Virus record (IMG/VR): IMGVR_UViG_2695420456_000012
DNA: 4,159 bases
Reading direction: 5' to 3' (one strand)
From: a virus
Lineage: Duplodnaviria > Heunggongvirae > Uroviricota > Caudoviricetes
Each line of letters starts with the position of its first letter. Position 1 is the first letter of the stretch. Shown here one piece after another: positions 1 through 4,159 of this stretch. The notes beneath the pieces are model-generated. The model was not told where the DNA came from. It saw only the letters and a list, made by a program, of their open reading frames with translations, and searched no databases. A program made the translations under genes and the position numbers.

Positions 1-2115
1 TACAGCGGCATCTGGGACGGCAGCCTGAAACCGGCATACAGCAACAACCCGGCCTGGTGCCTGTGGGACATGCTGACTCACCCGCGCTACGGCATGGGAA
101 AACGTCTGGTGGCGGCGGATGTGGACAAGTGGGCGCTGTATGCCATCGGGCAGTACTGCGACCAGACGGTCCCGGATGGTTTCGGGGGCACAGAGCCGCG
201 GATGACCTTTAATGCGTACCTGTCACAACAGCGTAAGGCGTGGGACGTTCTCAGTGATTTCTGCTCGGCGATGCGCTGTATGCCGGTATGGAACGGGCAG
301 ACGCTGACGTTTGTGCAGGACCGTCCGTCAGATGTGGTGTGGCCCTACACAAACAGTGATGTGGTGGCTGACAATGAAGGTGTGGGATTCCGCTACAGTT
401 TCAGCGCCCTGAAGGACCGTCATACTGCGGTGGAGGTCAGTTACGTCGACCCGCATAACGGCTGGCAGACCTCCACGGAACTGGTGGAAGACCCGGAAGC
501 CATACTGCGCTACGGACGCAACCTGCTGAAGATGGATGCGTTCGGCTGCACCAGTCGCGGTCAGGCCCACCGTGCCGGGCTGTGGGTGATAAAGACCGGA
601 CTGCTGGAAACGCAGACGGTGGATTTCACGCTCGGGTCACAGGGGCTGCGTCACACACCCGGTGACATTATTGAAATCTGTGATAACGACTATGCCGGGA
701 CCATGACCGGCGGACGTGTCCTGTCCATCGATGCCGCCAGCCGCACCCTGACGCTGGACCGTGAGGTGACACTGCCGGAGACCGGTGCCGCCACGGTGAA
801 CCTGATTAACGGCAGCGGTAAGCCGGTGAGTGTGGACATCACCGCACACCCCGCGCCGGACCGGATACAGGTCAGCACCCTGCCTGATGGTGTGGAGACA
901 TACGGTGTATGGGGACTATCCCTGCCGTCACTGCGCCGTCGCCTGTTCCGCTGTGTCTCCGTCCGGGAAAACACGGACGGCACCTTTGCCATCACGGCGG
1001 TGCAGCACGTACCGGAAAAAGAAGCCATCGTGGATAACGGGGCCAGCTTTGAGCCGCAGTCAGGCACCCTGAACAGCGTTATTCCACCGGCAGTGCAGCA
1101 CCTGACGGTGGAGGTGAGCGCGGCTGACGGTCAGTATCTGGCACAGGCGAAATGGGACACGCCGCGGGTGGTGAAGGGTGTGCGCTTCAGTCTGCGCCTG
1201 ACCAGCGGAAGCGGAGAAGACAGCCGTCTGGTGACCACCGCCATCACTGCGGATACAGAGCATCGTTTCAGTGGTCTGCCGCTCGGGGAATACACCCTGA
1301 CAGTCAGGGCGATTAACAGTTATGGCCAGCAGGGCGAACCGGCCACCACCACCTTCCGGATTAACGCGCCAGCAAAACCCGCCACGATTGAGCTGACACC
1401 GGGCTATTTTCAGATAACAGCGGTCCCGCGTCTTGCGGTGTATGACCCGACGGTACAGTTTGAGTTCTGGTTTTCGGAGGCAAAAATCGCAGACACATCT
1501 CAGGTGGAAACCTCTGCCCGTTATCTGGGGACCGGCAGTCAGTGGAGTGTATCCGGCCCGCACATTAAGCCCGGGAAGGATTTCTGGTTTTACGTGCGCA
1601 GCGTCAACCTGGTGGGGAAATCTGCTTTTGTGAAAGCCAGTGGCCGGGCCAGCAATGATGCAGAAGGGTATCTGGGGCTGTTTCGGGAAAAAATAGGAAA
1701 ACTGCATCTGGCTCAGGGGCTGTGGGAGCTGATAGACAACAGCCAGCTTGCGGATGAGATGGCGGAGATGAAGACCACCATCACCGAAACCCGCAATGAA
1801 ATCACACAGACGGTCAGTAAAACGCTGGAAGACCAGAGCGCCACCATTCAGCAGATACAGCGCGTGCAGAAGGACACAAATGATGACCTGGCTGCGCTGT
1901 ACATGCTGAAGGTTCAAAAAACGAAAGACGGCATTCCCTATGTGGCCGGGATTGGTGCAGGGATTGAGGATACTGATGGCCAGCCACTGAGCAACATACT
2001 GCTGCTGGCTGACCGTATCGCGATGATAAATCCGGAGAATCCGGGAAAACACGGACGGCACCTTTGCCATCACGGCGGTGCAGCACGTACCGGAAAAAGA
2101 AGCCATCGTGGATAA
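1..2115 (+). CDS. J: Host specificity protein J (tail tip / central tail fiber), 5'-partial. It reads in frame 1 from the window start through repeat copy 1, then shifts frame at the duplication junction (~2039) and ends after 25 out-of-frame codons at TGA 2113..2115.
   Basis: Frame 1 is open from position 1 ([36 protein letters not shown]...), upstream of the ATG at 70 reported by the ORF track. The translation closely resembles lambda gpJ from about residue 265 onward as I recall it (e.g. [99 protein letters not shown]). The tail ...MINPE|[25 protein letters not shown] is the out-of-frame reading of copy 2. Confidence 0.85.
962..2038 (+). repeat. Direct tandem repeat, copy 1 (1077 bp = 359 codons) internal to J.
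   Basis: Base-by-base comparison with 2040..3116 at offset 1078 shows identity except at 6 positions (1179, 1206, 1215, 1219, 1227, 1311). The ORF track independently shows it: identical 66-aa + ORFs at 1433..1633 and 2511..2711, and near-identical minus-strand ORFs at 1060..2145 and 2138..2995. Confidence 0.95.
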
Positions 2116-3116
2116 CGGGGCCAGCTTTGAGCCGCAGTCAGGCACCCTGAACAGCGTTATTCCACCGGCAGTGCAGCACCTGACGGTGGAGGTGAGCGCG
2201 GCTGACGGTCAGTATCTGGCACAGGCGAAATGGGACACGCCGCGGGTGGTGAAGGGGGTGCGCTTCAGTCTGCGCCTGACCAGTGGAAGCGGTGAAAACA
2301 GCCGCCTGGTGACCACCGCCATCACTGCGGATACAGAGCATCGTTTCAGTGGTCTGCCGCTCGGGGAATACACCCTGACAGTCAGGGCAATTAACAGTTA
2401 TGGCCAGCAGGGCGAACCGGCCACCACCACCTTCCGGATTAACGCGCCAGCAAAACCCGCCACGATTGAGCTGACACCGGGCTATTTTCAGATAACAGCG
2501 GTCCCGCGTCTTGCGGTGTATGACCCGACGGTACAGTTTGAGTTCTGGTTTTCGGAGGCAAAAATCGCAGACACATCTCAGGTGGAAACCTCTGCCCGTT
2601 ATCTGGGGACCGGCAGTCAGTGGAGTGTATCCGGCCCGCACATTAAGCCCGGGAAGGATTTCTGGTTTTACGTGCGCAGCGTCAACCTGGTGGGGAAATC
2701 TGCTTTTGTGAAAGCCAGTGGCCGGGCCAGCAATGATGCAGAAGGGTATCTGGGGCTGTTTCGGGAAAAAATAGGAAAACTGCATCTGGCTCAGGGGCTG
2801 TGGGAGCTGATAGACAACAGCCAGCTTGCGGATGAGATGGCGGAGATGAAGACCACCATCACCGAAACCCGCAATGAAATCACACAGACGGTCAGTAAAA
2901 CGCTGGAAGACCAGAGCGCCACCATTCAGCAGATACAGCGCGTGCAGAAGGACACAAATGATGACCTGGCTGCGCTGTACATGCTGAAGGTTCAAAAAAC
3001 GAAAGACGGCATTCCCTATGTGGCCGGGATTGGTGCAGGGATTGAGGATACTGATGGCCAGCCACTGAGCAACATACTGCTGCTGGCTGACCGTATCGCG
3101 ATGATAAATCCGGAGA
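2040..3116 (+). repeat. Direct tandem repeat, copy 2 (1077 bp). Its 3' end runs seamlessly into the downstream J sequence (GCGGCAACAGC from 3117).
   Basis: Same comparison as copy 1. Sequence flanking the pair is unique: 5' of 962 is ...CTGTGTCTCCG and 3' of 3116 is GCGGCAACAGCACG... A single A at 2039 separates the copies. Confidence 0.95.
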
Positions 3117-3787
3117 GCGGCAACAGCACGCCGTTATTTGTGGCGCAGGGGAATCAGTTGTTCATGAACGATGTGTTCCTGAAGCGGCTGTTTGCGGTGA
3201 GTATCACCTCGTCCGCCAATCCCCCGACGTTTTCCCTGACGCCGGAGGGCAGGCTGACCGCAAGAAATGCTGATATCAGCGGTAACGTGAATGCGAATTC
3301 CGGGACGCTCAACAACGTCACGATTAACGAGAACTGTCGGGTTCTGGGAAAACTGTCCGCGAACCAGATTGAAGGCGATCTCGTTAAAACAGTGGGCAAA
3401 GCTTTCCCCCGGGATTCCCGTGCACCGGAGCGGTGGCCATCAGGGACCATTACCGTCAGGGTTTATGACGATCAGCCGTTTGACCGGCAAATTGTTATTC
3501 CGGCGGTGGCATTCAGCGGCGCTAAACATGAGAGAGAGCATACTGATATTTACTCCTCATGCCGTCTGATAGTGCGGAAAAACGGTGCTGAAATTTATAA
3601 CCGTACCGCGCTGGATAATACGCTGATTTACAGTGGCGTTATTGATATGCCTGCCGGTCACGGTCACATGACGCTGGAGTTTTCGGTGTCAGCATGGCTG
3701 GTAAATAACTGGTATCCCACAGCAAGTATCAGCGATCTGCTGGTTGTGGTGATGAAAAAATCCACAGCAGGTATCAGTATCAGCTGA
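2078..3787 (+). CDS. J: Host specificity protein J, C-terminal portion in frame +2: repeat copy 2 (two fibronectin-III-like domains plus a helical segment) followed by the distal receptor-binding region. Probably not a free-standing gene; it is the continuation of J displaced by the 1078-bp duplication.
   Basis: Frame 2 is open from 2030 (just after TGA 2024..2026 and TAA 2027..2029) to TGA 3785..3787. The first possible start codon is GTG 2078, which has no Shine-Dalgarno sequence at a usable spacing. After the repeat, the translation continues with [25 protein letters not shown]...[24 protein letters not shown]...PFDRQIV...[15 protein letters not shown]...ISIS*, which matches the C-terminal layout of lambda gpJ as I recall it ([48 protein letters not shown]) but with a divergent extreme C-terminus. 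Confidence 0.8.
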
Positions 3788-3805
3788 ATTTTATAACCCA
3801 GAACG

Positions 3806-3832
3806 GGCGTCAGAAATGACGCCTTTTTTATT
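3806..3832 (+). terminator. Rho-independent terminator downstream of J.
   Basis: GGCGTCA (3806..3812) pairs with TGACGCC (3817..3823) as a perfect 7-bp GC-rich stem with a GAAA tetraloop (3813..3816), followed by TTTTTTATT (3824..3832). It lies 19 nt after the J stop codon. Confidence 0.8.
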
Positions 3833-3842
3833 GCAGAAAAGC

Positions 3843-3848
3843 GAGAGG
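3843..3848 (+). promoter_or_regulatory. Shine-Dalgarno sequence for lom.
   Basis: GAGAGG at 3843..3848, 5 nt upstream of ATG 3854. Confidence 0.6.
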
Positions 3849-3853
3849 TAATT

Positions 3854-4159
3854 ATGCGTAAACTTTATGCCGCCATTTTGTCCGCAGCCATTTGTCTGAC
3901 CGTATCCGGTGCGCCTGCATGGGCGTCTGAACATCAGTCCACGCTGAGCGCGGGGTATCTTCATGCCCGGACGAACGCTACCGGTAGCGATAATCTTAAC
4001 GGGATTAACGTGAAATACCGTTATGAATTCACGGACACGCTGGGGCTGGTGACGTCATTCAGCTATGCAGGAGACAGGAATCGCCAGATTACCCGTTACA
4101 GCGATACCCGCTGGCATGAAGATTCCGTGCGTAACCGCTGGTTCAGCGTAATGGCGGGG
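3854..4159 (+). CDS. lom: Lom outer membrane protein (Ail/Lom/PagC-family 8-stranded beta-barrel, lysogenic-conversion protein), 3'-partial. A predicted signal peptide occupies the first ~24 codons.
   Basis: ATG at 3854 with an upstream SD; the frame is open to the window end (102 codons). Translation: [24 protein letters not shown]|[78 protein letters not shown]. It has a basic N-terminus, a hydrophobic core and an AWA-type signal-peptidase site. It is near-identical to lambda Lom as I recall it, and sits immediately downstream of J as in lambda. Confidence 0.9.

Follow-up and report, generated by a model that had tools for sequence, protein, structure and literature searches.

A non-identical tandem repeat in a lambdoid prophage gpJ gene is probably a false duplication in a draft E. 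coli assembly

In O157 and other STEC genomes, co-resident lambdoid prophages are known to undergo mosaic recombination and gene conversion with one another, and recombination between prophages at different chromosomal sites duplicates, deletes or inverts the chromosome that lies between them. The breakpoints of illegitimate recombination are unrelated to allelic polymorphism, and there is often microhomology at the join. Genome assemblies can also contain false heterotype duplications, which are reportedly treated by Rhie et al. 2021 as well. In vertebrate assemblies, these consist of diverged versions placed side by side, with a gap or unsupported fill between them (PMC9516828). They are diagnosed mainly by read depth, which per copy is about half of that given by a true duplication, and by read pairs that are discordant across the join. 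GapFiller extends sequence one base at a time, with majority voting or stalling at 'allelic differences' (PMC3446322), and both SSPACE and GapFiller were called greedy and prone to false joins in the Sanger pipeline paper (PMC5320598).

Here we analysed a window of 4,159 bp, which is the entire contig CYDC01000140.1 of the E. coli draft assembly GCA_001285425.1. The first base of the contig lies within J and its last base within lom, and between them are most of the gpJ gene (tail tip attachment / host specificity) of a lambdoid prophage, a hairpin and the start of lom (Table 1). The Pfam series Phage-tail_3, Ig_J, Ig_J_second, Phage_Tail_Tip and Ig_GpJ_C is complete, with all domains above the gathering cut-offs (E-values of 1e-10 to 1e-42); Ig_J, Ig_J_second and half of Phage_Tail_Tip are each found twice because of an internal repeat. 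The gene context matches that of lambda gpJ, with lom downstream and, in homologous loci, tail assembly genes upstream, in the order L, C40 peptidase, tail assembly protein, gpJ, lom and tail fibre. In its domain order and its neighbour lom, the gene resembles gpJ of lambda and of lambdoid and Stx prophages; unlike lambda gpJ, it contains a 1078-bp internal repeat and a frameshift, which were seen in no other J gene searched.

Judged from the sequence, this tandem repeat is probably a false 'heterotype' duplication that arose in the draft assembly and does not reflect the structure of the genome. The six differences between its copies and the odd base at its junction most likely represent genuine differences between paralogs, with the frameshift as a by-product. 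As in the false heterotype duplications of Ko et al. 2022 (PMC9516828), adjacent diverged versions of one locus would carry version-specific variants, spurious gene fragments and frameshifts result, and the copy boundaries fall where natural versions start to differ. In contrast to those cases, what would lie side by side here are paralogous genes of prophages in one haploid bacterium instead of diploid haplotypes; the join contains a single odd base and no N gap, and the likeness drawn here is one of sequence. Prophage mosaicism also has a counterpart here, as the patch that separates the copies is built from variants segregating among natural J alleles, and paralogs in one genome (strain 13E0780) are identical for 2 kb and then diverge abruptly. 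Mosaicism explains the coexistence of near-identical J versions but not a tandem, out-of-frame repeat. Unlike in typical illegitimate recombination, the breakpoints lie on polymorphic branch sites, with at most 1 nt of homology.

Table 1. Coordinates of features in the 4,159-bp window.
Feature	Position	Strand	Basis or content
gpJ left part, frame 1; putative contig X	1..2038	+	Pfam domains, alignment to complete-genome gpJ
Pfam domains of the gpJ left part	1..2038	+	Phage-tail_3, Ig_J, Ig_J_second, first half of Phage_Tail_Tip
Repeat copy 1, 1077 bp	962..2038	+	Self-comparison at offset 1078; repeat search
Patch in copy 1, haplotype T-C-A-G-T-G, exact common natural allele	1179..1311	+	Allele searches
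Junction base A, seventh difference	2039..2039	+	Offset-1078 comparison, natural alleles
Junction-spanning string CCGGAGAATCCGGGAAAAC			
Repeat copy 2, 1077 bp, J in frame 2	2040..3116	+	Offset-1078 comparison
Patch in copy 2, haplotype G-T-T-A-C-A, natural bases, combination not found elsewhere	2257..2389	+	
Out-of-frame tail of the frame-1 ORF, 25 codons and stop	2040..2115	+	
Frame-2 ORF, CTX03137.1 'host specificity protein', 569 aa; J C-terminal part including copy 2	2078..3787	+	
J C-terminal module: second half of Phage_Tail_Tip and Ig_GpJ_C receptor-binding domain	3117..3787	+	Pfam
Terminator-like hairpin and T-run between J and lom	3805..3834	+	
lom (Ail/Lom outer-membrane protein), 5′ part, cut by the contig end	3854..4159	+	

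Aligned to itself with a shift of 1078, the window pairs positions 962–2038 with 2040–3116, 1077 bp each, with only six mismatches. A sequence-only reading of this DNA had located six differences between the copies within one 133-bp patch, five of them synonymous and one changing Asp to Asn in the first module, and our comparison bears this out. The copies (copy 1/copy 2) differ at 1179 (T/G), 1206 (C/T), 1215 (A/T), 1219 (G/A), 1227 (T/C) and 1311 (G/A), with the copy-2 counterparts in 2257–2389. In the J frame, five of the six are synonymous third-position changes, and at site 1219 GAC (Asp) becomes AAC (Asn), giving SGSGEDSRL versus SGSGENSRL. There are two Ig-like modules, and the patch lies within the first, Pfam PF24421 (Ig_J).

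Two features had gone unmentioned in that reading, namely a period that shifts the J frame and a seventh difference at A2039. The repeat period of 1078 bp is 3n+1, and J is therefore frameshifted: the frame-1 ORF stops at 2115, 25 out-of-frame codons past the junction, the remainder of J (2078–3787) is in frame 2, and no uninterrupted J reading frame is present in the contig as written. Removal of one 1078-bp unit restores the frame and leaves a 3081-bp sequence, which aligns end to end with intact gpJ–lom loci at 97.6–97.8% identity. The best matches to the whole window all span 3081–3082 bp, that is, a single copy. The join has no N gap and consists of the lone base A2039, which lies outside the patch and differs from the contig's own base at both flanks (G961 and G3117). 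Homology at the join is at most 1 nt, and nearby ATCCGG repeats were not used, both being retained.

Next, we compared the two copies with natural J alleles, using a set of 85 (80 IMG/VR loci and 5 from complete genomes) aligned to the collapsed window. Each of the six copy-2 bases is present in 15–44 of the 85 alleles. Substitutions equally common make up 5.1% of all those possible in the unit, so that six of six would occur by chance with P ~2e-8. As all six are common natural variants, the differences represent imported allelic variation, not drift or error. The clustering had been judged unlike uniform drift, and rightly so: in 2 million simulations with six differences scattered uniformly across 1077 bp, a span of 133 bp or less arose with P = 1.45e-4. 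We also considered simple hypervariability of the region as the origin of the patch; the region is not markedly hypervariable, as natural alleles differ from the unit throughout 1326–2038 too.

Both patch variants were searched against J genes, and the idea of a distinct natural allele behind each one holds for copy 1 only. The 161-bp patch of copy 1 has matches of at least 99% in 222 complete-genome records and a 100% match in an Stx2a phage. The 161-bp patch of copy 2 was matched at 97.5% at best in 5426 complete E. coli genomes and at 96.9% at best in GenBank phages, never exactly, and its 71-bp core was not found in IMG/VR, JGI metagenomes or GTDB representative genomes. A degenerate 141-nt pattern covering all 64 six-site haplotypes on the copy-1 background retrieved only two of them from IMG/VR, TCAGTA (25 contigs) and TCAGTG (1 contig), neither with any of the five clustered variants. 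The T-T-A-C block at 1206–1227 is a linked haplotype of one allele type (L019), which matches copy 2 in this block only and carries extra differences at 1248–1275 that copy 2 lacks. None of the sampled alleles links G1179 with T1206.

At the scale of the whole unit, every sampled natural allele has at least 10 differences from it, 6 or more of them in 1326–2038. Both copies therefore share one private background and are the same allele except for the small patch. The suggestion of two slightly different J alleles thus stands as far as the imported natural variation is concerned, but the copies are not two independent alleles. Natural J alleles are themselves fine-scale mosaics. Two near-identical natural alleles (L056 and L057) differ from each other by a clustered patch of 4 differences in 58 bp.

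The ends of the repeat coincide with sites at which natural alleles branch. At site 961, the natural alleles have A (64) or G (20), and at site 3117 they have A (55) or G (29); the contig has G at both, and A2039 is the major natural base at both. Natural alleles with the exact 21–61-mer that ends at 2038 continue with A or G, and those with the k-mer that starts at 962 have A or G just before it, so both repeat breakpoints sit on G/A branch sites of natural J alleles. If the alternative base has to be present in at least 8 alleles, branch sites account for 1.7–1.9% of positions; if any alternative is counted, they account for ~7%. The chance of both breakpoints falling on such sites is 3e-4 to 5e-3, by a test devised after the data were seen. 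Most of the nearest complete-genome alleles (99.4%) align only from the second base of the downstream segment. Because their alignments start one base in, this suggests that the nearest relatives carry a base other than G at the equivalent of 3117, in which case the G of the contig would be the minority base even among them.

One of the two breakpoints also shows a sharp natural mosaic boundary in J, at window position 2038/2039 (equivalent to 3116/3117). Strain 13E0780, a complete genome, has two J paralogs (L085 and L086) that are 100% identical over collapsed positions 1–2038, part exactly at 2039 (A versus G) and have 178 differences downstream. Among the 85 alleles, only one position is a commoner right-hand end of identical runs of at least 300 bp than 2039 (41 of 1071). 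Site 961 is a common SNP, yet it bounds long identical runs in 0 pairs of the 85-allele sample. The boundary at 2038/2039 marks the start of an exchangeable J C-terminal module, the last 223 residues including the receptor-binding domain, and the J C-terminal module of the contig (3117–3787) begins at this natural mosaic boundary.

The junction itself is unique to this contig in the collections searched. With a 121-nt query, 5426 complete E. coli genomes gave 0 places covering at least 80% of the query, and the exact 40-nt junction string was absent from IMG/VR, GTDB representative genomes and JGI metagenomes.

From these observations, we infer two paralogs in the source genome and a software step that joined their contigs. 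The source E. coli would have carried at least two lambdoid prophages, the J genes of which were near-identical over ~1 kb and set apart by a few natural polymorphic sites. One contig (about 1–2038/2039) would have ended at a paralog branch, the start of the swappable C-terminal module, and the other (about 2039/2040–4159) would have begun at a paralog branch, site 961/962, and run to lom. Read pairs inside the shared 1077 bp could have linked both contigs with a negative gap, and a scaffolder or gap closer may then have abutted the overlapping contigs head to tail without merging them, such that the 1077-bp overlap was written twice. The single junction base could have been taken from the read majority, A in both contexts. 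The second paralog, with the copy-2 haplotype, is postulated, this haplotype being unseen in any other genome searched. If the repeat is an artefact, read pairs leaving 1900–2038 should continue only into GCGGCAAC or ACGGCAAC contexts, and J fragments with ...TCTCCA upstream of TCCGGGAAAAC and with ...CCGGAGA running into ACGGCAAC would support two paralogs.

As for the tools, an attribution of the join to Velvet, SSPACE and GapFiller would be a guess. The published closure rule of GapFiller, which asks for 10 nt of overlap or more, would not on its own give a clean one-base join (PMC3446322), and a pure de Bruijn contig would require the junction k-mers to be in the reads. A loop in a de Bruijn graph was considered and ruled out, as no natural k-mer links the unit end to the unit start.

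Several observations favour an assembly artefact over a rearranged gene. A contig built from multi-paralog reads ends at branch sites, whereas illegitimate recombination has no reason to choose them; the period of 1078 bp frameshifts an essential tail gene; and the junction is absent from all collections searched. A private background combined with common variant bases is the expectation for near-identical co-resident paralogs, and the contig is a short draft contig that starts in J and ends in lom, genes present at many places per genome (up to 14–15 J-like places per E. coli genome). The sequence-only reading had taken the non-identity of the copies as an argument against an assembly artefact. 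This argument excludes a trivial self-duplication only, as joined paralog contigs predict the same pattern; the joined-paralog model further accounts for the frameshift, for the junction base and for the fact that both breakpoints lie on paralog branch sites.

A real illegitimate recombinant is unlikely, even when its two variants are taken together. The first is a hybrid J pseudogene, in which a J allele broken after 2038/2039 was joined to a co-resident allele at 961/962, the partners being two prophages or a phage and a prophage; in essence, the idea of two alleles and unequal recombination put forward earlier is the same. It would account for copies with different natural haplotypes, several J paralogs per genome are usual, and the junction A would have had a template if the common A stood at 961 or 3117 in one parent. 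Paired reads could, moreover, have assembled such a duplication correctly, the copy-2 patch being 218–350 bp from the junction. However, both breakpoints would have to lie beside polymorphic branch sites by chance, one of them on the main mosaic boundary of J, and there is no usable microhomology at the join, with the nearby ATCCGG repeats both kept. The product would be frameshifted, its junction was seen in none of the collections searched, and exchange between prophages at different sites would also leave the chromosome between them duplicated, deleted or inverted, making a stable product less likely. Overall, we consider a real hybrid rather improbable.

The second variant is very improbable: here, one J allele would truly have been duplicated in tandem, and another J paralog would then have converted a short tract in one of the copies. 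It fits the one private background shared by the copies and the confinement of their differences to one contiguous patch of natural variants, and clustered patches between natural near-identical alleles are known (the L056–L057 pair). But an intra-allelic event puts G at the junction, and A would need an extra change at precisely that base. No single donor emerges either: the tract is contiguous, spans 133 bp and consists of natural variants, but L019-type alleles fit its T-T-A-C part only, and no allele carrying the whole copy-2 haplotype was found in the collections searched. The coincidence of breakpoints and branch sites applies to this event as well. That the six differences are random post-duplication mutations or sequencing or consensus errors can scarcely be credited; their small number is in keeping with it and nothing more, and against it stand the clustering, the five synonymous changes among six and the presence of all six among common natural variants.

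The repeat is most probably not a real feature of the genome, and the CDS of CTX03137.1, a singleton protein cluster, and its frameshifted partner are probably annotation artefacts in public protein databases. The case is a caution that non-identical tandem copies in a short draft contig of a multi-copy prophage gene do not prove duplication. A real recombinant would mean that both Ig-like modules and part of the tail-tip domain were duplicated, with a previously unseen J haplotype, and might represent a frameshifted intermediate in domain gain by tail-tip proteins; even so, a real duplication would be a modest curiosity (a J pseudogene) and not a new mechanism. A by-product of the analysis is a J polymorphism map with the mosaic boundary at 2038/2039, where co-resident paralogs switch from identity to divergence.

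We also asked whether the two flanks come from different prophage types, as a sign of chimerism; they need not, as the J pseudogene of strain 2013C-4974 matches both at 99.4%, and the flanks are therefore no sign of chimerism. In this pseudogene (L113; NZ_CP027587.1, 1151115–1154595), the 99.4% identity extends over window positions 1–1040 and 3127–4159, and the middle (1041–2048) differs from the contig by about 5%. Because the flanks and the middle differ in this way, the collapsed allele may itself be a mosaic, or the middle of the contig may come from another paralog.

The start of the window is shared with other drafts, as two unrelated IMG/VR draft contigs (L005 and L034) begin at most 10 nt from its first base. 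As these contigs start there too, assemblies of multi-prophage E. coli genomes appear to break repeatedly at this point, a paralog branch. Downstream of J, the hairpin at 3805–3834 reads GGGCGTCA-gaaa-TGACGCC(T), followed by the T-run, and lies between the J stop codon (3785–3787) and the lom start at 3854.

Finally, four IMG/VR alleles (L068, L070, L072 and L074; for example, L070:2501-3796) have an in-frame 73-aa insertion between Ig_J_second and Phage_Tail_Tip. Like the repeat described here, these alleles have sequence added to the middle of J, and they show that this region tolerates it. Unlike the repeat, which is out of frame and unique, the insertion is in frame, holds no copy of an Ig module and occurs in several contigs. 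It lies in a repetitive, coiled-coil-like-looking segment with recurring 'EITQTVS/EITSTTD' motifs.
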